Shown here piece by piece: positions 5,779-14,799 of a DNA stretch of 14,799 nt. Below the pieces are notes generated by a model. That model searched no databases and was not told the DNA's origin. It worked only from the letters and a program-made list of their open reading frames with translations. The stretch lies in IMG/VR virus record IMGVR_UViG_2654587540_000008; one strand, given 5' to 3'. Source of the DNA: a virus. Taxonomy: Duplodnaviria; Heunggongvirae; Uroviricota; Caudoviricetes. The stretch's first letter is position 1, and each line of letters opens with the position of its first letter. The translations under genes were made by a program, and so were the position numbers.

Positions 5779-8244
5779 GTGGCCAGTGAATTTTCAGTCG
5801 GCGTCATTATTGGCGGCATTGTCGGGAGCAGCTTCCGCTCAGCCGTCAGTGGCACCCGACGCGCCCTTGATTCCCTTGGTGATACCTCCCGCCGTCTGCA
5901 GGAACGCCAGAATGCCTTAACCCGGGCAACAGAACGTTATGGTCAGTTGGGTTCTTCCCGGATGCAGCATCTCAACAGCGAGTTGCTGCGGGTAAGCCGC
6001 ACCATGGAGCAAATTGAACGTCAGCAGCGCCGTCTGTCAGCAGTATCAGCCATCGGTGATGCGTTGAAGGCTAACCGCCTGGCGCTCTATGGTCAGGGTG
6101 CAGAAACCTATGCTATTGGCAGAACGCTGGGCGCACCGGTCATGGCCTCGGTTAAACAATATGCCTCGTTTGAATCACAGTTACGGGATATCAGTGTCAC
6201 AGGAGACCTGGATGCAAAACAGGAACGTGCAATTGGCCTGGCTATCAGACAGGCCTCGCTGAAGGTTAACCAACTGCAGGAGTCTCTGTTAGGGGGAGTC
6301 GGACAATTAGTCGCTGATGGTATGGCCCCCGAACGGGCAGCAACGTTTGCAGAGATGCTTGGAAAGACCGCTACAGCAACCAAAGCCGATATGACCGACC
6401 TTGCCAAAATGACTTATGCCTTCAGCGATGCACTCAGAATCACTGATGCGAAAGAACTTGAACAGGCATTTGGTATTGCGGCAACAGGAGCCAAACTTGG
6501 GTCATTTGAGCTGAAGGATATGGCAAAAGCATTACCCGGTATGGCTAAAGCCTTCGCTGCTCGTGGTATTTATGGAAAAGATGCGATTACCCAGATTGTT
6601 GCCAGTCTGGAGGTCGGTAAAGGTAGTGGCTCTGCAGAGGAAGCGGTCACCAATATGTCCAACTGGCTGGCAGCAATGGGCCGCGGAGATACCATCCAGA
6701 AATATGCTAAAGCCGGGGTGGATTACCAGGGGTCAATGCAGAATTACGTCGCTCAGGGTTTTTCGCAGTACGAAGCTTCACTGATGATTGCCAACCGTTT
6801 TATCGACAGTAAAGGCAAAGCGTTCTTGCAGCAATGGAAAGCTGCAGGAGCAAGAGGCGATCAGGAAGGTCAGCAGAAACTCATGGAGTCATTTGGTCTG
6901 GCTGAGGTCTTTACCGATATTCAGACTGTCAACCATTTACTGTCAATGCGACAGGGCTGGGATAAATACCTTTCCAGTAAGCAGGAAATGAATGCTCCGG
7001 CTGCAATGTCTACCCTGGATAAGGATGCTGCAAAGCAGAATGATACGCTTGAAGGTCGCTGGCGCAGAATGCAGATCGGCTTTAATGATTCTGCTATCAG
7101 CATCGGGCAATCCTTGCGTCCGGCTTTGCTCCAGTTGGGTGAAACATTTATTCCTTTAATGGACAGTGTTGGCAAATGGATAGCGGCAAATCCGCAGCTC
7201 GTCAGCAGCACCATAAAGGTTGTGGGCGCATTACTCGCTTTCAGGATGGCCACTATCGGTCTCAAGCTTGGGCTGAACCTCCTTCTTTCCCCCTTTGTAA
7301 GCGTCTGGAAAAATGCTGTTTTACTTCGGGCCAACTGGCTTCGTCTGACGCTCGCACTGGGGGAAGGCGGTAAACTCCGCTGGCTGGTGACAGGCTTTGG
7401 TGCTGTCGCCAGAGGAGCCAGAACACTGGGTGGTGTGCTCTCAGGGGGGCTGGTTCGCGGAATTATGAGCGCCGGGCGTGCCGTTCTCTGGCTTGGCCGG
7501 GCGCTGATGATGAATCCCATCGGTCTCGCTATCACCGCCGTCGCGGCAGCAGCTTACCTTATCTACCGCAACTGGGGCGCGGTCAGTAGCTGGTTTAAAC
7601 AGCGCTGGGCTGACATTCAGGAAGCCTTTAACGGCGGCATCGCGGGAATTGGTAAACTGCTGGTTAACTGGTCTCCGGCAGGTCTGCTTTATAAAGCCTT
7701 TGCGGCTGCGCTGAAATATCTCGGCGTTGATTTGCCGGCGAAATTCACCGACTTCGGTGGTCATCTTATTGACGGGCTGATAAATGGCATCAGAAACAAA
7801 TGGGAGTCACTGAAAACCAGCATAACCGGAATGGGTGACAGCATCAGTGACTGGTTCAGCGAAAAGCTGGGCATCCATTCACCGAGTCGCGTGTTTATAG
7901 GCTTTGGTGACAATATCGCGCAGGGTGCCGCCATTGGCCTGCAACGGACCACTCCGCTTGCTGCACTGGCCGGGCAGCGTCTGGCCGCTGAAATGACACC
8001 GGATGTTCCCCGTATCCCGTCGCCGGAAATCATGGCTGCCGGATATTCAGGCCGTGGCGCAACTGCAACCGGCGGTGGAGCGTCTGGCGGTATCCAGGTC
8101 AGCTTTAATCCTCAGTTTTTCCTCAATGGTAAGGAAACCGCAGCGCCTGCCGGGCTGGCTGGTGCCCTGAATATGAGCCTGCATGAGCTGGAAAAAATGC
8201 TGGAGCGTCTGCTGGCTCAGAAACAACGTAAGGAGTACAGCTGA
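5779..8244 (+). CDS. Tail tape measure protein
   Basis: 821-aa ORF from a GTG start at 5779 (GAGGA 9 nt upstream). N-terminal helical, Q/R/E-rich region, a central glycine-rich hydrophobic stretch (...GFGAVARGARTLGGVLSGGLVRGIMSAG...) and position directly after the chaperone pair are typical of tape measure proteins. Confidence 0.85.
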   Translation: MASEFSVGVIIGGIVGSSFRSAVSGTRRALDSLGDTSRRLQERQNALTRATERYGQLGSSRMQHLNSELLRVSRTMEQIERQQRRLSAVSAIGDALKANRLALYGQGAETYAIGRTLGAPVMASVKQYASFESQLRDISVTGDLDAKQERAIGLAIRQASLKVNQLQESLLGGVGQLVADGMAPERAATFAEMLGKTATATKADMTDLAKMTYAFSDALRITDAKELEQAFGIAATGAKLGSFELKDMAKALPGMAKAFAARGIYGKDAITQIVASLEVGKGSGSAEEAVTNMSNWLAAMGRGDTIQKYAKAGVDYQGSMQNYVAQGFSQYEASLMIANRFIDSKGKAFLQQWKAAGARGDQEGQQKLMESFGLAEVFTDIQTVNHLLSMRQGWDKYLSSKQEMNAPAAMSTLDKDAAKQNDTLEGRWRRMQIGFNDSAISIGQSLRPALLQLGETFIPLMDSVGKWIAANPQLVSSTIKVVGALLAFRMATIGLKLGLNLLLSPFVSVWKNAVLLRANWLRLTLALGEGGKLRWLVTGFGAVARGARTLGGVLSGGLVRGIMSAGRAVLWLGRALMMNPIGLAITAVAAAAYLIYRNWGAVSSWFKQRWADIQEAFNGGIAGIGKLLVNWSPAGLLYKAFAAALKYLGVDLPAKFTDFGGHLIDGLINGIRNKWESLKTSITGMGDSISDWFSEKLGIHSPSRVFIGFGDNIAQGAAIGLQRTTPLAALAGQRLAAEMTPDVPRIPSPEIMAAGYSGRGATATGGGASGGIQVSFNPQFFLNGKETAAPAGLAGALNMSLHELEKMLERLLAQKQRKEYS

Positions 8245-9128
8245 TGTTTGCCGTACTGGGTGATATTGAGTTTGAGCTGATTACCTACTGGGACGGCTTC
8301 GAGGCCACGTTTGGCGTCGATTATGCGGAGCATGCCCGCATCGAGGGTAAACCCGGCCTGCAGTTCGTCGGCGACAGGCTGGACGAAATCCAGATAAGCC
8401 TGGTCTTCCATCAGCATTATTGTGTGCCCGACGTGGAGCTGGCGAGAGTGCGAACAGCCATGAAGGCCCATCAGGCACTGGCGCTGGTCTTCGGCAACGG
8501 TGACTATCGCGGCTGGTTCGTGATTACCGATGTGACCGCAACCAGCGAGCAGACAGACAGCACCGGTAACGTGCTGGCTGTCAGTGCCACCGTGTCTCTC
8601 CGGGAATACACCGGTGACCCGAAAAATCCTCTGCAACCGCCGGCAATACGCAGGCAGGTTCCCGGTGCCGGGGCCGTATCTGGTGCTGTTCCATCGCCTT
8701 CCGGGGTGGCGCAGTTCGTCCGTAACGGCGTCAACTATGCGAAACAGGCGCAGTCTGTACTCCAGACCACTATCAGTGCCGTTCGGGTGGCGCAGAAAAT
8801 GAAGGGTAACCCCGTTGTCGCGCTGACCCGTGTGCCGGGACTGATGAGCGGACTGGGTAATATATCCGGAGCTCTGGGGAAAAGTGTTCCGGCGTTTAAT
8901 GCACTCTCTGAATCCATGCCCGATGCCATCAGTCTGGCCAGAACAGCCAGTGAGGCAGCCACGTATGTACAGCAGGCGCAGTCGGCGCTGAGTGGTGTGG
9001 ACAAAAGAAATATTGCAGGTGCTCTGGATACCGTTTCCGGGCAGCTTAACGCCGCCGGCACAGCATTCAACCGCATGTCTCCGGGATTAAGTGCAATGGC
9101 CGCCAGAATACTGACGAGGAGTGTGTGA
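8244..9128 (+). CDS. Tail protein with gpU / DNA-circulation-N-like N-terminal domain and a low-complexity Ala/Ser/Gly-rich C-terminal extension
   Basis: The ATG overlaps the tape measure stop (TGATG) with AAGGAG 8 nt upstream. The first ~125 aa (MFAVLGDIEFEL...GKPGLQFVGDRLDEIQISLVFH...GNGDYRGWFVITDVTATSEQTDSTGNVLAVSATVSLREY) align by eye with the P2 gpU-type fold. The remaining ~170 aa are low-complexity and unassigned. Confidence 0.65.
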   Translation: MFAVLGDIEFELITYWDGFEATFGVDYAEHARIEGKPGLQFVGDRLDEIQISLVFHQHYCVPDVELARVRTAMKAHQALALVFGNGDYRGWFVITDVTATSEQTDSTGNVLAVSATVSLREYTGDPKNPLQPPAIRRQVPGAGAVSGAVPSPSGVAQFVRNGVNYAKQAQSVLQTTISAVRVAQKMKGNPVVALTRVPGLMSGLGNISGALGKSVPAFNALSESMPDAISLARTASEAATYVQQAQSALSGVDKRNIAGALDTVSGQLNAAGTAFNRMSPGLSAMAARILTRSV

Positions 9129-9205
9129 TGTTTCTTGAACATATTACCCGTGACGGAGAGCGCTGGGATTCTCTGTGGATGAGGCACTGGCCATTGATGT
9201 GCTGA
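9128..9205 (+). pseudogene. Short out-of-frame leader ORF (MFLEHITRDGERWDSLWMRHWPLMC), possible remnant N-terminus of a deleted or frameshifted tail gene
   Basis: ATG at 9128, 25 codons, in a different frame from the J-like ORF that opens at 9175. The J-like protein lacks the N-terminal part expected for baseplate J proteins. The GDxWDSL motif is reminiscent of LysM-like tail protein X N-termini (weak). Confidence 0.3.
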
Positions 9206-9987
9206 TCCCGGCAGGCACCCGCGTCAGCGCTTCCGACAGTATTATTTTTGCCACCGATACAGATGTGGTGCTGAAGGCCGGATTGCTGCTGGTCAATGTC
9301 ACGTCCACCTGTACCGAGCCGGGTACCGCTGGCAACGGCTGGCAACCGGCGCAGGTCAGTCAGTTACTCGATGAGATTGATAACATTGACCTGCTGGTGA
9401 CCAATCTGACGGCCAGCTCTGGCGGTTCAGAGCAGGAAGACGATGACCGGCTCCGGGAGCGTATCAGGCTGGCCCCGGAGTCATTCACCAATGCCGGAAG
9501 CCGTGGTGCATACCGTTTTCATGCTATGGGGGCGCATCCCGGCATTGTCGACGTTGCTGTTCTTTCTCCCGCTCCCGGCACTGTCGAGCTGTATCCGCTG
9601 CTCAGCACTGGTCTGCCGGACAGCAGTATCCTCACTCTGGTAGAGAGTTTCTGTTCTGACGAAAAAGTCAGACCACTCACTGATACCGTGCGGGCTAAAA
9701 CACCTGTTCAGGTGGATTACACCATTGAAGCCAGGATTACGATCTATCGTGATCAGGATGCAAGGTTGGTAAAGGACAACGCTAACAGCGCCATACAGAA
9801 CTGGGTGGCATCCCGTACCGCCACGCTGGGGCGCGATATTGTTCCCAGCCAGATTATCAGCGTGTTGTCCGTTTCCGGGGTGTACCAGGTCGAACTGGTG
9901 ACACCGGCACTGAGGGTGGTGGCAGAAAACGAATGGGCAAACTGTACGGCGATCACTCTTAACATGACCGGGGTGTCCGATGGCTGA
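9175..9987 (+). CDS. Baseplate assembly protein J-like (P2 gpJ / Mu gp47 family), apparently N-terminally truncated
   Basis: 270 aa from the first in-frame start (GTG at 9175). The C-terminal two thirds (..GSRGAYRFHAMGAHPGIVDVAVLSPAPGTVELY...TLGRDIVPSQIISVLSVSGVYQVELVTP...) match the gpJ family as I recall it. An 8-bp overlap (ATGGCTGA) with the I-like gene is typical of J-I pairs. Confidence 0.7.
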   Translation: MDEALAIDVLIPAGTRVSASDSIIFATDTDVVLKAGLLLVNVTSTCTEPGTAGNGWQPAQVSQLLDEIDNIDLLVTNLTASSGGSEQEDDDRLRERIRLAPESFTNAGSRGAYRFHAMGAHPGIVDVAVLSPAPGTVELYPLLSTGLPDSSILTLVESFCSDEKVRPLTDTVRAKTPVQVDYTIEARITIYRDQDARLVKDNANSAIQNWVASRTATLGRDIVPSQIISVLSVSGVYQVELVTPALRVVAENEWANCTAITLNMTGVSDG

Positions 9988-10558
9988 GGTGCTACAACTC
10001 CCGCCACCGCTTGAGGGTGATATCAGTCTCAGAACGCTGGGAAGACTGGCCGGACGGCTGGATAACATCGACCTGAGCGTACTGATGGTCGGTCTCGTCG
10101 ATATTGTCGACAGTTCCGCGCTGCCATGGCTTGGCGAGCAGTTCTCGCTGTTCGGCGATGGCTGGGAACTGGCGGAATCGGACGATGTACGCCGCATGCT
10201 TATCAAATCCGCTATCGAGCTACACCGCTATAAAGGAACACCGTGGTCAATCCGGGAAATTATCCGCCGTTTTGGCTTCGGCGAAGTGGATCTGATTGAA
10301 GGTACGGGGCAGATTGGCTATGACGGCAGACACACGTACAACGGGCTTTTCGTCCATGGCGATGCACAAGCCTGGGCAGTCTATCGGGTCATCCTTCAAC
10401 AGCCCATCACTAATGATCAGGCAGCGCTGTTACGTCAGACGCTTGCTGCCTTTGCTCCGGCTCGCTGTCATCTGGCAAGTCTGGAATATCAGTCTGTCGC
10501 CATTCGATACAACAGTACTACCCGTTATGACGGTAGTTACAACCACGGGAGCAGTTAA
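9980..10558 (+). CDS. Tail protein I-like (P2 gpI / Mu gp48 family)
   Basis: 192 aa containing IELHRYKGTPWSIREIIRRFGFGEVDLIEG, a hallmark-like motif of the gpI family. Positioned between the J-like gene and the tail fibre gene. Confidence 0.75.
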   Translation: MAEVLQLPPPLEGDISLRTLGRLAGRLDNIDLSVLMVGLVDIVDSSALPWLGEQFSLFGDGWELAESDDVRRMLIKSAIELHRYKGTPWSIREIIRRFGFGEVDLIEGTGQIGYDGRHTYNGLFVHGDAQAWAVYRVILQQPITNDQAALLRQTLAAFAPARCHLASLEYQSVAIRYNSTTRYDGSYNHGSS

Positions 10559-10560
10559 TT

Positions 10561-11643
10561 ATGGCAAATCTACCCGAAACCCCGCAGTGGGAAAGCGGCA
10601 TCTACCAGATTGAGGTCTCTGACCCCGTTCTGGGCGGACCTGACGGAATTTCTAACCGCCAGGCTAAACAACTGGCCAGCCGAACGTCATACCTCAAACA
10701 GAAGGTCGAAAAAAGCGAAACAGACCTGGCTGCACATATCGCGGCAGTTGACCCGCATACCCAGTACGCGACGAAAGCCAGTCCGACATTCACCGGCACA
10801 CCAACAGCACCTACACCTGCAAATGGTGATAACAGCAAAAAGCTGGCGACGACGGAGTTTGTGGCCAAAGCACTTGCGGCACTTGCAGGCAGCGCCCCTG
10901 AGACACTGGATACGCTTAAAGAGCTGGCTGACGCTCTCGGTAATGATCCAAACTTTGCGACTACGGTACTGAACAAGCTGGCGGAAAAGCTGGCTAAAGA
11001 CCAGAACGGCGCAGATATTCCTGAGCCTGCGCTGTTTGTCAAAAACCTTGGTTTGGGGGAAGGCTCTGCACTGCCCGTTGGTGTGCCTGTTCCGTGGCCA
11101 TCAGCAACACCGCCAGAGGGATGGCTGAAATGTAACGGCGCAGCATTTTCTTCTGAAATGTACCCCAAACTGGCAAAGGCTTATCCCACGAATAAATTAC
11201 CGGATTTACGGGGTGAATTTATCCGTGGCTGGGATGACGGACGTGGCGTGGATGCGGGGCGAACATTACTGGGTGCTCAGGATTTTGCGTTTGAAGATCA
11301 TGCTCTGGGGCTACCTACCAATCAGGGATATGCAGGTATTGAGAAAGGTAGCACTGAAAATGATATTTATGCCGCTTTCTCTGATGGCATGCACTATACA
11401 GGGAATGCAACCAGTAGCGGTCAATGGGATGATTATTCTCAGTCAAAAATCTATATCCGTAGTGATGGTAAACCTGTCGGAAATAACATTGAGTTAGCTA
11501 ATTCAAATGAGGCCTTGCGTTCTTCTTTACGTACTTATAGAGCCAGTACAGGATGGTATAACCCAGGATTAAACAAACCTAAAACAGCTACAGAAACACG
11601 TCCACGCAACGTTGCTTTTAATTACATCGTAAGAGCCGCATGA
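10561..11643 (+). CDS. Tail fibre protein: constant N-terminal part (10561 to about 11047) fused to currently expressed variable C-terminal cassette A
   Basis: 360 aa. The N-terminus has phage tail-fibre repeat-like sequence (VDPHTQYATKASPTFTGTPTAPTPANGDNSKKLATTEFV). The C-terminal part begins with a tail-collar-like module (WLKCNGAAFSSEMYPKLAKAYPTNKLPDLRGEFIRGWDDGRG) and ends ETRPRNVAFNYIVRAA. The crossover site lies inside the gene at 11036-11061. Confidence 0.85.
   Translation: MANLPETPQWESGIYQIEVSDPVLGGPDGISNRQAKQLASRTSYLKQKVEKSETDLAAHIAAVDPHTQYATKASPTFTGTPTAPTPANGDNSKKLATTEFVAKALAALAGSAPETLDTLKELADALGNDPNFATTVLNKLAEKLAKDQNGADIPEPALFVKNLGLGEGSALPVGVPVPWPSATPPEGWLKCNGAAFSSEMYPKLAKAYPTNKLPDLRGEFIRGWDDGRGVDAGRTLLGAQDFAFEDHALGLPTNQGYAGIEKGSTENDIYAAFSDGMHYTGNATSSGQWDDYSQSKIYIRSDGKPVGNNIELANSNEALRSSLRTYRASTGWYNPGLNKPKTATETRPRNVAFNYIVRAA
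11036..11061 (+). other. Serine-invertase crossover site (hix/gix/cix-like), expression-site copy
   Basis: TTGTCAAAAACC-TT-GGTTTGGGGGAA has the 12-2-12 architecture and AAACC nn GGTTT core of hixL (TTCTTGAAAACC AA GGTTTTTGATAA) and gix sites, as recalled. It sits exactly at the constant/variable junction of the tail fibre gene. Confidence 0.7.
11048..11253 (+). repeat. Conserved 5' cassette module, copy A (tail-collar-like domain coding, ~200 bp)
   Basis: Encodes GLGEGSALPVGVPVPWPSATPPEGWLKCNGAAFSSEMYPKLAKAYPTNKLPDLRGEFIRGWDDGRG. Near-identical DNA recurs at 11649, 12193 and, inverted, at about 13990-14194, with a partial inverted copy at about 13592-13700. Confidence 0.85.
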
Positions 11644-11662
11644 AAACGTTGGTTTGGGGGAA
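11637..11662 (+). other. Crossover-site-like sequence at the cassette A/B junction, with a degenerate left half-site
   Basis: CGCATGAAAACG-TT-GGTTTGGGGGAA. The right half and centre are identical to the expression-site copy; the left half retains only the AAAAC core (5 of 12 matches). Confidence 0.4.
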
Positions 11663-11854
11663 GGCTCTGCACTGCCCGTTGGTGTGCCTGTTCCGTGGCC
11701 ATCAGCCACACCGCCAGAGGGCTGGCTGAAATGCAACGGCGCAGCATTTTCTTCTGAAATGTACCCCAAACTGGCAAAGGCTTACCCCACCAATAAATTA
11801 CCGGATTTACGCGGTGAGTTTATTCGTGGCTGGGATGACGGGCGCGGAGTAGAT
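11649..11854 (+). repeat. Conserved 5' cassette module, copy B
   Basis: Near-identical to 11048-11253 with scattered, mostly synonymous substitutions; the encoded peptide is identical through GWDDGRG. Confidence 0.85.
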
Positions 11855-12187
11855 ACAGGACGTGTTTTATTAAGTAATCAAACAGATGCTTTTCAAACAC
11901 ACAGACATAAGACCTATTTTTATGCAGGTATCAACCGTAATGAAATGCCTTTAAAAAATTTACCTGAATCAGAAGAAATGCTGACATTAAGCTCTACAGT
12001 TAATGCCTTGTCTCCAGCCGATATTGATGCCACAAATTCATTAATTGGGAATGACGATTACAACTGTGTTATTGAAGGCAATAAAAACAGTAAACGTACA
12101 GCGACAGAGTTGAATACCAGCTCTACAGGCACAACAGAAACCCGCCCCCGCAATATTGCTTTTAACTTCATTGTAAGAGCAGCATAG
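11651..12187 (+). CDS. Silent alternative tail-fibre C-terminal cassette B (no independent start codon or RBS)
   Basis: Open frame beginning right after the stop of cassette A. It encodes the same 65-aa tail-collar module, then a divergent ~95-aa region, and ends with the conserved ETRPRNIAFNFIVRAA and TAG. The track start is an internal TTG with no Shine-Dalgarno sequence. Confidence 0.7.
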   Translation, partial: GLGEGSALPVGVPVPWPSATPPEGWLKCNGAAFSSEMYPKLAKAYPTNKLPDLRGEFIRGWDDGRGVDTGRVLLSNQTDAFQTHRHKTYFYAGINRNEMPLKNLPESEEMLTLSSTVNALSPADIDATNSLIGNDDYNCVIEGNKNSKRTATELNTSSTGTTETRPRNIAFNFIVRAA

Positions 12188-12206
12188 AAACGTTGGTTTG
12201 GGGGAA
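12181..12206 (+). other. Crossover-site-like sequence at the cassette B/C junction, with a degenerate left half-site
   Basis: AGCATAGAAACG-TT-GGTTTGGGGGAA; same right half and centre as the expression-site copy. Confidence 0.4.
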
Positions 12207-12398
12207 GGCTCGGCGCTGCCTGTTGGCGTGCCGGTTCCATGGCCGTCAGCCACACCGCCAGAGGGCTGGCTGAAATGTAACGGCGCAGCATTTTCTTCTG
12301 AAATGTACCCCAAACTGGCAAAGGCTTACCCCACCAATAAATTACCGGATTTACGGGGTGAGTTTATTCGTGGCTGGGATGACGGGCGCGGAATTGAC
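12193..12398 (+). repeat. Conserved 5' cassette module, copy C
   Basis: Near-identical to copies A and B; the encoded peptide is identical through GWDDGRG. Confidence 0.85.
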
Positions 12399-12665
12399 TC
12401 TGGTCGCAACCTGTTATCTGCACAGAATGATGCAATTCAGAATATTGTTGGTTCTTTTGGGCGTACCCAGCTTTTTAAAGACGTTCTTAGTTCAGGACCA
12501 TTTAGTAGAATTAATCAAGTTTTATCTATTGGTCTAAAGGAAACGGAATTTATTGAGGGTTATGGAGCTTATAACTGGACATTCGACGCTTCTCGAGCGG
12601 TTCGTACAGCATCTGAAACCCGCCCCCGAAATATTACATTTAACTATATCGTGAGGGCGGCTTAA
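12195..12665 (+). CDS. Silent alternative tail-fibre C-terminal cassette C
   Basis: Same conserved 5' module, a divergent middle (..NLLSAQNDAIQNIVGSFGRTQLFKDVLSSGPFSRINQVLSIGLKETEFIEGYGAYNWTFDASRAVRTAS..) and the conserved end ETRPRNITFNYIVRAA, stop TAA at 12663-12665. No start codon context. Confidence 0.7.
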   Translation, partial: GLGEGSALPVGVPVPWPSATPPEGWLKCNGAAFSSEMYPKLAKAYPTNKLPDLRGEFIRGWDDGRGIDSGRNLLSAQNDAIQNIVGSFGRTQLFKDVLSSGPFSRINQVLSIGLKETEFIEGYGAYNWTFDASRAVRTASETRPRNITFNYIVRAA

Positions 12666-12671
12666 TTATGA

Positions 12672-13289
12672 TCAACTGACAGTTGCCAGAGGCATTTCCG
12701 GCCAGTTGATATCCGGCGCAGTGCTGAGGTCAGTCGCATTAAGCGCATCTATAAAATCAAGCACGGCGTTCAGTTTTTCCGTCTCCTGTGGCGTCAACTG
12801 GCGTCCGGCTCGTAGTTTGAGATTTATAAGCTCAACGGATGCCATTGCCTGCTCCTCAAGTTGCTGACGATGCGCTCCGGCAGCTTCCAGTTCTGCAGTG
12901 TGCTGTCGTTCCGTATCTGTCACCCAGTTCTCACCATCCCAGATATCATAGATGGTAGCTGGCTGTTTTACCGTCGTATCAGAAGGGTAATCTCCCGGCT
13001 GTGTGATTTGCACAGCGTTACCATTCTCTGTGCTGTAAACCGTCTCGCCTCTGTGGTCTGGGACATATTTCCAGATGTTCTGGTCGGTATCACGACAGAC
13101 AGCGAAGCCAGGGCGCTCTTCCGGTGGCGCGTCAATGCATGAATGAGCCGGAATTCCAACACCATAAGCGAGATATTCAACAGTGGCAGAGAGATATTCA
13201 CGGTTTTCAGCATCGTAGTTATAAACTGTAATATCGCCTGCAGTTGTAGCGATACCATTCTGATCAAGTACTGCAACAGCGTTATTCAT
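12672..13289 (-). CDS. Tail fibre assembly protein (Tfa; Mu U / P2 gpG / lambda Tfa family)
   Basis: 205 aa. The C-terminus ..LNAVLDFIDALNATDLSTAPDINWPEMP has the typical Tfa ending. The start codon overlaps the stop of cassette D as TAATG (translational coupling). It converges on cassette C with 6 bp between stops. Confidence 0.8.
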   Translation of the reverse strand: MNNAVAVLDQNGIATTAGDITVYNYDAENREYLSATVEYLAYGVGIPAHSCIDAPPEERPGFAVCRDTDQNIWKYVPDHRGETVYSTENGNAVQITQPGDYPSDTTVKQPATIYDIWDGENWVTDTERQHTAELEAAGAHRQQLEEQAMASVELINLKLRAGRQLTPQETEKLNAVLDFIDALNATDLSTAPDINWPEMPLATVS

Positions 13290-13700
13290 TAAATAGCCCT
13301 TACAATATAGTTAAACGCAATATTACGGGGGCGGGTTTCTGTTCCTGTATTCCCTCCGTTGACACCTAACCTGTACACACCACGAGTGCCAATAGCACGT
13401 AGTGAAGATGGAACCTTTACGCCTGACTCATCTGTTTTAACTATCCCTCCATCCCCGTATGTAGCCAGTATACCAGGATTTGTACCTGCACGTGTGCTGT
13501 TTGCAGCAAGCCCTTCACCGGTCCATAACTCCATATAGTGAGTATGATCCATAACCGAATGTGGTTGTGCATTAAGCAAGAAACGCCCTGAATCAATTCC
13601 CCGTCCGTCATCCCAGCCACGAATAAACTCACCCCGTAAATCCGGTAATTTATTGGTGGGGTAAGCCTTTGCCAGTTTGGGGTACATTTCAGAAGAAAAT
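13289..13700 (-). CDS. Alternative tail-fibre C-terminal cassette D (inverted orientation, 5' end truncated by an N run), followed by tfa
   Basis: Minus-strand frame encoding ..SSEMYPKLAKAYPTNKLPDLRGEFIRGWDDGRGIDSGRFLLNAQPHSVMDHTHYMELWTGEGL...TGTETRPRNIAFNYIVRAI. The first ~100 bp of the conserved module are missing where the N run 13701-13710 sits. Confidence 0.7.
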
Positions 13701-13710
13701 NNNNNNNNNN
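13701..13710. other. Run of 10 N at the cassette E/D junction; assembly gap or masked sequence
   Basis: By comparison with the A/B and B/C junctions, about 97 bp of conserved sequence (crossover site plus start of the tail-collar module) is expected here, so the 10 N do not represent true length. Confidence 0.9.
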
Positions 13711-13715
13711 CGTTT

Positions 13716-14194
13716 CTATGCTGCTCTTACAATGAAGTTAAAAGCAATATTGCGTGGACGAGTTATATTAAAAAATGACCCACTTAAAGCAACTTTGGAA
13801 CGGCTATTGGCGTTACCCAGAGATGCGTACCATAAATAATCGCTCCGATAATCAGTTGAGAATGTTTTATCACCGCCATAATCAATGCTATTACCGTTAC
13901 TCATATATGAAATATCAACTGAAGCATCATTGTCATCTCTACCACCAACTAAAGTACCTTTCTGCCACCCAAGCAACTGGCGGCCAGGATCAATTCCCCG
14001 TCCATCATCCCAGCCACGAATAAACTCACCCCGTAAATCCGGTAATTTATTCGTGGGATAAGCCTTTGCCAGTTTGGGGTACATTTCAGAAGAAAATGCT
14101 GCGCCGTTACATTTCAGCCAGCCCGCTGGCGGTGTGGCTGACGGCCACGGAACAGGCACACCAACGGGCAGTGCAGAGCCTTCCCCCAAACCAA
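13716..14194 (-). CDS. Alternative tail-fibre C-terminal cassette E (inverted orientation)
   Basis: Minus-strand frame encoding the full conserved module (one substitution, PPAGW instead of PPEGW), a divergent middle (..QLLGWQKGTLVGGRDDNDASVDISYMSNGNSIDYGGDKTFSTDYRSDYLWYASLGNANSRSKVALSGSFFN) and ITRPRNIAFNFIVRAA. The track's upstream extension to 14228 runs through the N run and is not trusted. Confidence 0.7.
13990..14194 (-). repeat. Conserved 5' cassette module, copy E (inverted)
   Basis: Reverse complement is near-identical to 11048-11253. Confidence 0.85.
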
Positions 14195-14204
14195 NNNNNN
14201 NNNN
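14195..14204. other. Run of 10 N exactly where the crossover half-site of cassette E is expected
   Basis: On the minus strand the sequence reads ...CTTTGTTTTG-N10-TTGGTTTGGGGGAA. The N run replaces the left half-site and lies 22 bp upstream of the invertase start. Confidence 0.9.
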
Positions 14205-14226
14205 CAAAACAAAGAGGATATTTTTC

Positions 14227-14799
14227 ATGCAAATTGGCTACATTCGTGTGTCAACAAATGACCAGAATACAGATTTACAACGAAACGCACTGAACTGCGC
14301 AGGATGTGAACTGATTTTTGAAGATAAAATCAGCGGAACAAAGTCAGCCAGACCAGGATTGAAAAAGCTACTCAGAACTTTATCAGAAGGAGATACGCTC
14401 GTTGTCTGGAAGCTGGACAGGCTGGGCAGAAGCATGAAGCACCTTATCACTCTTATTGAGGAACTGCGGGGAAAAGGGGTTAACTTCCGTAGCCTTACAG
14501 ACAGCATTGATACGTCAACACCCATGGGACGTTTCTTTTTTCACATCATGGGGGCTTTGGCGGAAATGGAGCGTGAATTAATAGTTGAACGAACACTGGC
14601 CGGACTTGAAGCAGCACGTGCACAGGGGCGTATTGGCGGACGCCGTCCGAAACTGACAAAAGAGCAACATGAACAAATAGCAAGGCTGATCAAAAATGGC
14701 TATAGCAGGAAACAACTGGCAATTATTTACGATATCGGCATATCGACGATTTATCGTTATCACCCGGTAGAAAAGCTACAAACTCAAACTGAGTTGTAA
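14227..14799 (+). CDS. Gin/Pin/Cin/Hin-family serine DNA invertase
   Basis: 190 aa. MQIGYIRVSTNDQNTDLQRNAL...DTLVVWKLDRLGRSMKHL...FRSLTDSIDTSTPMGRFFFHIMGALAEMERELIVERT...GRIGGRRPKL is near-identical in motif content to Gin/Pin/Hin as recalled. The catalytic Ser is at position 9 and there is a C-terminal helix-turn-helix. The track ORF from 14074 is an upstream artefact; stop TAA at 14797-14799. Confidence 0.92.
   Translation: MQIGYIRVSTNDQNTDLQRNALNCAGCELIFEDKISGTKSARPGLKKLLRTLSEGDTLVVWKLDRLGRSMKHLITLIEELRGKGVNFRSLTDSIDTSTPMGRFFFHIMGALAEMERELIVERTLAGLEAARAQGRIGGRRPKLTKEQHEQIARLIKNGYSRKQLAIIYDIGISTIYRYHPVEKLQTQTEL

Follow-up and report, generated by a model that had tools for sequence, protein, structure and literature searches.

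A probable Min-type multiple DNA-inversion system for the tail-fibre end of a defective Escherichia coli prophage, with silent cassettes in direct orientation

According to the literature, the DNA invertases Gin and Hin strongly prefer inversion over deletion between direct sites. The tail-fibre locus in the 14,799-nucleotide stretch of viral DNA analysed here (the window) therefore raises the question of how silent cassettes that lie head-to-tail with the expressed cassette could reach the expression site. Analysis of the window and of its relatives in public E. coli assemblies led us to conclude, with high confidence, that a Min-type multiple DNA-inversion system, or serine-invertase "shufflon", here serves the C-terminal, receptor-binding end of the tail fibre. 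The system is made up of five crossover sites (s1 to s5) and five cassettes, of which A, B and E are single and C and D belong to a central unit (C> <tfa <D), with a Pin/Min-type serine invertase adjoining. It is housed in an E. coli prophage that is transposable (Mor/GemA-encoding) and defective and has a P2-like tail module. The map was completed with L093, a gap-free assembly from the same lineage that has the insertion site and an internal deletion in common with the window.

The constant 5′ part of the tail-fibre gene (Hc; 10561..11047, plus strand, within an ORF of 10561-11643) comes after the Baseplate_J and Tail_P2_I genes (Pfam), is 99% identical to the Hc of the E. coli loci L001 and L002, and ends in a fixed tail half-site, TTGTCAAAAACC. 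Cassette A (11050..11643, plus strand; 197 codons and a stop), a single module with its head at 11050 and its tail at 11637-11648, is currently fused to it. Behind A lie two silent cassettes in direct orientation, the intact single module B (11651..12187, plus strand; 178 codons and a stop) and cassette C (12195..12665, plus strand; 156 codons and a stop), which provides the central unit with its left head and whose stop is not followed by a tail half-site. The head-to-tail order of B and C behind the expressed A, noticed in an earlier, sequence-only reading, was borne out; s2 and s3 have the same plus orientation as s1. Both cassettes are established as intact and in frame: they are open from the site to one terminal stop, with neither frameshifts nor internal stops, and their in-silico fusions to Hc gave uninterrupted proteins of 341 aa (B) and 319 aa (C), the A fusion being open too. 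Convergent with C is the only tfa present, a tail-fibre assembly (chaperone) gene (12672..13289, minus strand; Pfam Caudo_TAP, E=5e-26), which is coupled to cassette D through a TAATG overlap and which in relatives always lies between a D-type cassette and a convergent cassette. D itself (13289..13700, minus strand), the right head of the central unit, has lost its first 97 nt together with site s4 in a scaffold gap, so that its visible part is a partial 136-aa frame; a complete D of 168 codons, 100% identical over the visible part, is present in L093. Cassette E (13716..14192, minus strand; 158 codons and a stop) is an inverted single module. The cassettes carry a Collar domain and take a position after the J and I baseplate genes (Pfam).

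The crossover sites are established in the orientations + + + - -, and the 19-nt core pattern occurs three times in the window against 0.00 expected (200 shuffles). The expression site s1 (11036..11061, plus strand; TTGTCAAAAACC TT GGTTTGGGGGAA) marks the junction with Hc in every isoform, the cassette that follows it varying from one to another. The two junction sites were found exactly as they had been quoted before, right half GGTTTGGGGGAA included, on the plus strand: s2 (11637..11662) consists of the A-tail CGCATGAAAACG, the core TT and the B-head GGTTTGGGGGAA, and s3 (12181..12206) of the B-tail AGCATAGAAACG, the core TT and the C-head GGTTTGGGGGAA. On the minus strand, two runs of N interrupt the remaining sites. 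The run at 13701-13710 is a scaffold gap standing for 97 nt, the length predicted for the s4 side from L093, and hides the s4 core, the D-head and the 5′ module, leaving visible the E-tail half-site of s4 (13711-13722; reverse complement AGCATAGAAACG). The run at 14195-14204, a scaffold gap standing for 44 nt, hides the fixed invertase-side tail half-site of s5 (14181..14206), the E-head and core of which are visible; the masked half reads AAGACGAAAACG in L093 and other relatives. Thus s4 and half of s5 were filled in from the 100% identical L093, and both minus-strand sites, placed in the window by scaffolding, were confirmed in gap-free relatives.

The left halves of s2 and s3 had been called degenerate and reduced to an AAAAC core. 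The latter description fails for s3, which shares only AAAC with the left half of s1, and the word degenerate proved misleading. Both are of the AAACG class, which is also that of functional mix sites of the E. coli plasmid p15B and of pixR of e14 (PMC3241671 Table 3). Compared with the junction tails of the p15B mix sites, the tails of s2 and s3 show 2-3 differences in 12 positions, and the invertase-side tail AAGACGAAAACG shows one in 12 from mixMl''L'. The left halves of s2 and s3 are also no more than one base away (A-tail in s2, 11/12 identical) from the active junction half-site of enteropathogenic E. coli (EPEC) E2348/69, AGCATGAAAACG, at which inversion was measured and PCR-validated for a site direct to the expression site (PMC4272514). 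In the Phi2 prophage of EC958, inversion at a ...TAAACG TT GGTTTGGGGGAA site was confirmed by PacBio.

In this system each single cassette (A, B, E) is a mobile module composed of the head half-site GGTTTGGGGGAA, an ORF with its stop, and its own tail half-site ending in AAACG, and the central unit bears two convergent heads. Two fixed tail half-sites, one provided by the constant gene part and the other by the invertase side, complete the set, each 26-bp site being composed of a tail, the core TT and a head. Strand exchange would take place at the core between any two inverted sites, probably catalysed by the adjoining invertase and presumably dependent on Fis and an enhancer, and would change the host range through the cassettes. 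Under this grammar, single cassettes between the constant part and the central unit must be head-to-tail with the expressed one, and the direct orientation of B and C is therefore a necessity in the present isoform and no anomaly. A state-space search with the window grammar found 48 isoforms reachable by inversion alone, and the same grammar with six sites gave 240, equal to the published isoform number of p15B as quoted by later papers. Starting from the window isoform, D and E come to the expression site by one inversion, and B and C by two each, in agreement with the former proposal that B and C can be reached only after a prior inversion.

Natural copies of the element contain the predicted rearrangements. 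Through an exact-protein look-up, the only way in which identical cassettes were found, public E. coli assemblies yielded cassettes 99.8-100% identical to those of the window in six or more further arrangements, which makes at least seven arrangements in all. Hc::B is present in L101 (B 100% identical), Hc::C in L098 (C 99.8% identical) and Hc::D in L096, and Hc::A, Hc::B, Hc::C and Hc::D are called as natural genes of 360, 341, 319 and 331 aa in public contigs. Cassettes identical at 100% to A are silent and inverted in L096, L098 and L103, and those identical at 100% to E are direct in L093 and L100. All observed arrangements fit the grammar, at distances of 1-5 inversions from one another, and every five-cassette isoform keeps all its cassettes. 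Tails travel with their cassettes, as shown by the A-tail, which precedes E or D heads in other isoforms. Core-exact rearrangement between natural copies is likewise established: L093 inverted in silico at the s3/s5 cores matched the window at all 4,219 non-N bases (0 mismatches), its inversion at s1/s5 yielded L098 with 4 mismatches in 4,360 nt, and the isoform junctions in natural copies all map to a 24-bp interval around the core. For C, public assemblies thus contain both stages of the two-step route, the intermediate in L093 and the final Hc::C in L098, and Hc::B is found in L101.

The isoforms represent different isolates, mostly short-read drafts, and switching is read from natural copies rather than within the culture of one strain. 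The head runs of 50-95 nt that are shared might in principle lead a de Bruijn assembler onto a wrong path; such an error is countered by the consistency of the grammar, by the host flanks and by the complete genomes. Breaks of contigs at the cores were not accepted as proof of a mixed culture, since the repeat structure alone breaks the de Bruijn graph at the same points. In complete long-read genomes, orthologous cassettes are shuffled alike; for example, WP_046960619.1 is direct in L002 and inverted in L088, a B-type cassette occupies the expression site in the complete genome of MS20655, and a C-type cassette does so in that of strain 12089. When Hc+B and Hc+C chimeras were searched against complete E. 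coli genomes, the search retrieved only orthologues of ~84-89% identity at the expression site. Comparison of three complete E. coli assemblies of strain 8178 for differing isoforms gave one arrangement in all three, and comparison of the whole region with a phage collection gave no close relative, the best match covering 27%. A scan of the constant part with one genome per species detected relatives of 88-96% identity in Erwinia, Pantoea, Mixta and others. In these relatives the systems are simple and have just two sites, the invertase is a different one (70% identity) and the distal sites resemble palindromes, so that they are uninformative on junction sites.

RecA-dependent recombination across "~200-bp identical modules" had been considered as another route for B and C, one in which the invertase would take no part. 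The ~200-bp 5′ modules turned out to be 91.5-95% identical among the cassettes rather than identical, with exact runs of 50-95 nt. Such similarity is sufficient for RecA, and the modules are partly homogenised within the genome, the B module of the window being 94.5-95% identical to those of A, C and E in the window and only 89.5-91% identical to orthologous B, which points to gene conversion over evolutionary time. As an explanation of how the cassettes change place, however, this route is very unlikely. Given differences at 5-9% of positions between the modules, random crossover within them would give chimeric heads, whereas every rearranged natural copy has head modules that match their own cassettes at 99.8-100% identity and tails still attached to the cassettes before them, indicating that the crossovers took place at the 26-bp site. 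Moreover, recombination between direct modules would delete cassettes instead of relocating them, and core-exact inversion in silico suffices to reproduce two other isoforms with the 0 and 4 mismatches given above. RecA-dependent access is accordingly both unneeded and disfavoured.

That B and C might be decaying archival copies, made unusable by degenerated left half-sites, could be argued from these half-sites, in which only 5/12 positions fit the palindromic expectation, and from truncated cassettes in relatives, for example the one expressed in JB2 and a remnant of 96 codons in MS20655. We assign this idea a negligible probability, because the reading frames of B and C are intact, as are all five orthologues examined, and because their half-sites match validated functional sites. 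The substitution patterns give no sign of decay either: the variable-part dN/dS is 0.08-0.13 (B 0.13, C 0.08-0.09, at dS above 1), the same as in A and E. Identical copies stand at the expression site in L101 (B) and L098 (C), and in our view these Hc::B and Hc::C isoforms of the identical element refute archival decay. An assembly or scaffolding artefact, arising when short reads from a mixed-isoform culture are assembled across repeats, is a further way to account for the head-to-tail order; the window is indeed a scaffold with two 10-N gaps exactly at crossover cores, and the E contig could belong elsewhere. This is extremely improbable, given that the A-B-C stretch (11036-12665) is contiguous and free of Ns, that the window order complies with the grammar and is converted by exactly one core-level inversion into that of the gap-free, same-lineage L093, and that the complete genomes L002 and L004 contain arrays of 2-3 direct silent cassettes. 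Site-specific inversion in two steps remains the preferred explanation for the movement of B and C.

The enzyme encoded next to s5 (14227..14799, plus strand; 190 aa) is a Din-family serine DNA invertase of the Pin/Min type, with Pfam Resolvase (E=3e-51) and HTH_7 domains and matches to Mu Gin structures at E~1e-90. It is 81% identical to PinE, 73% to Cin and 93% to the prophage invertase of E2348/69, and 182 of its 190 residues (95.8%) are the same in the corresponding enzyme of a p15B-like plasmid with exact mix sites. A candidate Fis-dependent recombinational enhancer was located inside the invertase gene (14245..14316, plus strand), where 58/72 aligned positions agree with the enhancer annotated in P1 cin, which has the same codon offset; this stretch is coding, so its conservation is expected anyway and does not count as independent evidence. 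For Cin (P1), Gin and Hin, the enhancer is situated within the 5′ end of the gene for the invertase.

The Min multiple-inversion system of p15B is said to have been described by Sandmeier et al. in 1990. Like the window, p15B (mix sites from PMC3241671) has a Din-family serine invertase beside overlapping invertible segments, alternative 3′ ends that join one constant tail-fibre 5′ part, and 26-bp sites with an invariant head half (reverse complement TTCCCC[C/T]AAACC AA) and variable AAACG-ending tails after the stop of the preceding cassette. On the other side, p15B is a P1-type plasmid with six sites, whereas the window has five, hence 48 isoforms, and is part of a defective, transposable prophage in the chromosome, the tail of which is P2-like. 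The constant fibre part of the window also differs from that of p15B, which is why its Hc-side tail half-site is TTGTCAAAAACC and not TTCTTGATTACC, and the window carries only one tfa gene. The P2-like prophage of EPEC E2348/69 harbours a three-site "shufflon", for which two overlapping inversions and four coexisting variants were found by WGS and PCR (Goldberg et al., 2014; PMC4272514), and the coordinates in Table S1 of that paper fall on the sites that we found in L003. It shares with the window the cassette family, the head half-site, the post-stop junction AGCATGAAAACG TT GGTTTGGGGGAA, one tfa within a convergent central unit and the 93% identical invertase. In contrast to the window, it has one extra single cassette only, and so three sites and four isoforms, as well as another constant part and Hc-side half-site, the latter equal to mixQ''R' of p15B. 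Pin/e14, Cin/P1 and Gin/Mu share the enzyme family and the 26-bp site design, and pixR too has an AAACG tail half (TTTTCATAAACG), but these are binary switches between two ends, each with its own tfa, and contain no direct silent cassettes. The R64 shufflon is an analogue, not a homologue: overlapping inversions, strongly favoured over deletion, pick one of several C-terminal ends of PilV, but the recombinase (Rci) is a tyrosine recombinase, the sfx sites are asymmetric, and the product is a conjugative pilus adhesin.

The head and tail half-sites of a single cassette stand in direct repeat with those of its neighbours, which opens the possibility that the invertase could occasionally excise single cassettes precisely as circles and perhaps re-insert them, providing an integron-like platform for gain, loss and exchange between prophages and P1-type plasmids. 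We put this forward as a speculative and rather unlikely idea. L094, 99.6-100% identical to the window, lacks exactly B and has a clean A-tail/D-head site, as would fit a rare deletion; arrays of relatives span 2 to 9 sites; and a p15B-like plasmid carries a C-type cassette of 90% identity. If cassettes were exchanged in this way, the junction sites would do more than permit inversion.

The array is ordinary biology, of a kind already described for p15B (1990) and for the EPEC prophage (2014), and as a textbook-type multi-inversion host-range switch it adds little new biology. In place of one chaperone per alternative, as in host-range switches of the Mu G or P1 C type, it has one tfa for five cassettes, which is invariably coupled to D and lies antisense in half the isoforms, and most cassettes may therefore fold without the chaperone. 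With the X-D-V-W genes and the 5′ part of J missing from the prophage, switching may have no effect on the phenotype here. For annotation, direct silent cassettes with AAACG tail half-sites are to be regarded as 3′ gene segments that can be exchanged, and labels such as pseudogene or stand-alone "phage tail protein" gene are to be avoided. In draft genomes, scaffold gaps and contig breaks are to be expected at the crossover sites, and the arrangement given is one isoform of many. Moreover, the natural isoforms of one identical element, mapped to the core dinucleotide, constitute a data set on site choice by Min/Pin-type invertases.

Annotation of the window placed a tail module on the + strand, in which genes for a tail assembly chaperone, a tape measure and GpU are followed by a 5′-truncated Baseplate_J gene (9175-9987), a Tail_P2_I gene (9980-10558) and a fibre gene of 360 codons with a Collar domain (10561-11643). 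Behind the fibre gene, whose constant 5′ part (Hc) is fused to cassette A, two more Collar-domain reading frames, cassettes B and C, lie on the + strand. The Caudo_TAP tail-fibre assembly gene (tfa) and cassettes D and E occupy the - strand, and a 190-aa Resolvase/HTH_7 recombinase (14227-14799) ends the region. The two crossover sites quoted in the sequence-only reading, s2 between A and B (11637-11662) and s3 between B and C (12181-12206), were found as written, and both are indeed in direct orientation relative to the in-gene expression site s1 (TTGTCAAAAACC TT GGTTTGGGGGAA, 11036-11061). The 19-nt pattern common to the sites occurred 3 times, against 0.00 occurrences expected by chance. 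In B and C the reading frame is open from the site to one stop, and in-silico joining to the constant part gave open products of 341 aa and 319 aa, respectively. Gene callers and PGAP treated each silent cassette as a 'phage tail protein' gene in its own right, both in the window (11654-12187 and 12198-12665) and in loci L002, L004 and L087, with the start at a TTG within the crossover site (GGTTTGGGGGAA). These TTG starts are artefacts; the cassettes themselves have neither a start nor a ribosome-binding site.

The left half-sites of s2 and s3 had been regarded as degenerate, but they belong to the same class as those of the working p15B mix and e14 pixR sites. Read on the other strand, s2 is TTCCCCCAAACC AA CGTTTTCATGCG and s3 ends in CGTTTCTATGCT; the p15B mix sites given in Table 3 of PMC3241671 are TTCCCC[C/T]AAACC AA CGTTTTTATGCC and others ending in CGTTTTTATGTG and CGTTTTAGTCTT, and the e14 pixR site in that table ends in AA CGTTTATGAAAA. 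The half-site on the invertase side in close relatives, CGTTTTCGTCTT, is 1 base off mixMl''L'. In EPEC E2348/69, two overlapping inversions were measured and validated by PCR, one at NC_011601.1 1891695-1893703 (90 +/- 3% forward) and the other at 1892127-1893703 of the same record (49 +/- 37% forward) (Goldberg et al., PMC4272514). These published coordinates coincide with three sites that we located in that locus. The second of them, AGCATGAAAACG TT GGTTTGGGGGAA, is a post-stop junction oriented like the expression site, and its left half is identical to that of s2 at 11 of 12 positions. PacBio evidence also exists for inversion at a ...TAAACG TT GGTTTGGGGGAA site in prophage Phi2 of EC958, and the AAACG half recurs in the active distal site of e14.

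The rules of the array were derived by comparing eight E. coli loci. In all eight, the left half-site is carried along at the 3′ end of the cassette before it, and the half-sites adjoining the constant part and the invertase are invariant; a single cassette therefore runs from a head half-site through an ORF and its stop codon to a tail half-site. There is one central unit, in which two convergent heads flank the sole tfa ([C> <tfa <D] in the window, > and < giving orientation). Since every site joins a tail to a head, single cassettes are direct to the left of this unit and inverted to the right of it, so that a head-to-tail position with A is the only possible state of B and C on the left side. 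A breadth-first search of arrangements, permitting inversion solely between inverted sites, reached 48 isoforms (3! x 4 x 2). Starting from the window, the search needed two steps for B and C and one for D and E, which bears out the proposal of multi-step shuffling. A six-site version of the model gave 240 isoforms, the figure quoted for p15B Min. The single assembly gene for the five cassettes (tfa, 12672-13289) is convergent with C and overlaps the stop of D (TAATG, 13287-13291). In 24 of the 48 isoforms, the window's included, it runs antisense to the fibre operon; fibres that end with A, B, C or E lack a co-transcribed chaperone. Elsewhere, the expression-site cassette of E. coli JB2 (L088 5452-6237) ends after 98 codons, and in E. 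coli MS20655 (L089 4459-4665) the tfa-convergent cassette is reduced to a remnant of 96 codons and overlaps a shortened tfa.

Exact-protein look-ups with the window's fibre and Tfa proteins retrieved public E. coli contigs bearing the same element, with cassettes 99.8-100% identical to A-E at the nucleotide level. One contig (L097, GCA_000806195.1) has the window's arrangement, Ns included. The others read Hc::A, B>, E>, [D> tfa> <C] (L093, GCA_017046735.1); Hc::A, [D> tfa> <C], <E, without B (L094, GCA_023828135.1); Hc::D tfa> <C, <E, <A, <B (L096, GCA_012455115.1, and L103, GCA_012411345.1); Hc::C, <tfa <D, <E, <B, <A (L098, GCA_012227165.1); (A), E>, B>, [C> <tfa <D] (L100, GCA_012412425.1); and Hc::B, [D> tfa> <C], <E, (<A) (L101, GCA_012417825.1). 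All of these arrangements keep the rules of the array, and the observed isoforms are 1-5 inversions apart. L093 and the window have in common an insertion site between abrB and nei (100% identical to E. coli chromosomes) and an internal deletion. In-silico inversion of L093 from the core of s3 to that of s5, the inverted site on the invertase side, yielded the window with 4,219 of 4,219 non-N bases matched and predicted gap sizes of 97 nt and 44 nt; inversion between s1 and s5 yielded L098, the isoform with Hc::C, differing at 4 of 4,360 nt. A path to C in two steps (s3 x s5, then s1 x s5) is therefore documented by both intermediate and product, and its first step employs s3, one of the doubted junction sites. 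The sole arrangement beyond inversion alone is that of L094, whose prophage matches the window at 99.6-100% identity: cassette B is absent and a clean A-tail/D-head site stands instead (7077-7102). B may have been lost there through a rare, precise deletion between direct sites, or it may be a later gain.

The window contains two 10-N runs of fixed nominal size (13701-13710 and 14195-14204), which begin exactly at the core dinucleotides of the inverted sites s4 (D/E junction) and s5 and, by alignment with relatives, hide about 97 nt and 44 nt. They are therefore scaffold gaps in a short-read scaffold, and repeat collapse or a mixed-isoform culture could be their origin. Where D and E lie in the window depends on scaffolding; the A-B-C stretch contains no N, and an assembly artefact is unlikely there. 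The 5′ modules (11050-11250, 11651-11850, 12195-12395 and 13993-14192), described earlier as identical over ~200 bp, are instead 91.5-95% identical over 200 nt, and the exact runs of 50-95 nt among them would in principle allow rearrangement by RecA-type exchange. However, chimeric heads were not seen among the rearranged natural copies, and every joint in them fits an exchange at the core, so RecA-dependent access is not supported. In the window, the B module shows 94.5-95% identity to the A, C and E modules and 89.5-91% to orthologous B modules elsewhere, and the module has a lower dS than the variable part, which points to gene conversion among the modules; RecA-type exchange seems to homogenise them over time without accounting for the rearrangements. 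Decay of B and C into archival copies is excluded: their ORFs are intact, and identical copies stand at the expression site elsewhere. Orthologues checked for damage in related genomes were intact in 5 of 5 cases, and dN/dS of the variable parts (at dS above 1) was 0.13 for B, 0.08-0.09 for C and 0.14 for A and E. The sequence-only reading was correct in its observation and in its first proposal, multi-step shuffling; its proposals of degenerate sites, RecA access and decay were not supported.

Mor and GemA genes (2119-2938), on the - strand opposite to the tail module, identify the prophage as Mu/BcepMu-like and transposable; its tail is P2-like. Copies whose cassettes are identical (L093-L104) occupy varied chromosomal positions among isolates (abrB-nei, puuA, yehR and others), often with a truncated host gene adjoining the invertase gene. 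At the internal deletion (~9128-9175, joint near 9169), a tail-protein-X-like start (MFLEHITRDGERWDSLW...) passes directly into Baseplate_J at about codon 95, and identity to E. coli J-I-H is 99.3% from 9169 on. In the L094 prophage, which is nearly identical elsewhere, X, D, V and W are present and J is complete; the window element is therefore defective for baseplate genes.

The region operates like p15B Min and, by the features testable here, belongs to that type: the invertase is of the Din family, the sites are of the mix class, number more than two and occur in both orientations, the fusions are in frame and the isomers are exact at the core. A putative enhancer, lying in coding sequence, matches the annotated P1 enhancer at 58 of 72 positions. 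Unlike p15B Min, which has six sites, the window has five, a different constant fibre part and only one tfa gene, and belongs to a chromosomal transposable prophage. The nearest described chromosomal relative is the three-site system of EPEC E2348/69, whose invertase is 93% identical; relatives in other genera are two-site systems only, with more distant invertases. The P1-type phage-plasmid p779-3 (L092 2057-7031, NZ_CP086223.1) carries nine sites identical to published p15B mix sites, an invertase identical to the window's at 182 of 190 positions and one cassette with 90% protein identity to C. Its array follows the same rules, with seven single cassettes and a central unit, and could in principle form 80,640 isoforms. 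The system of the window represents a further example of an already known inversion type.
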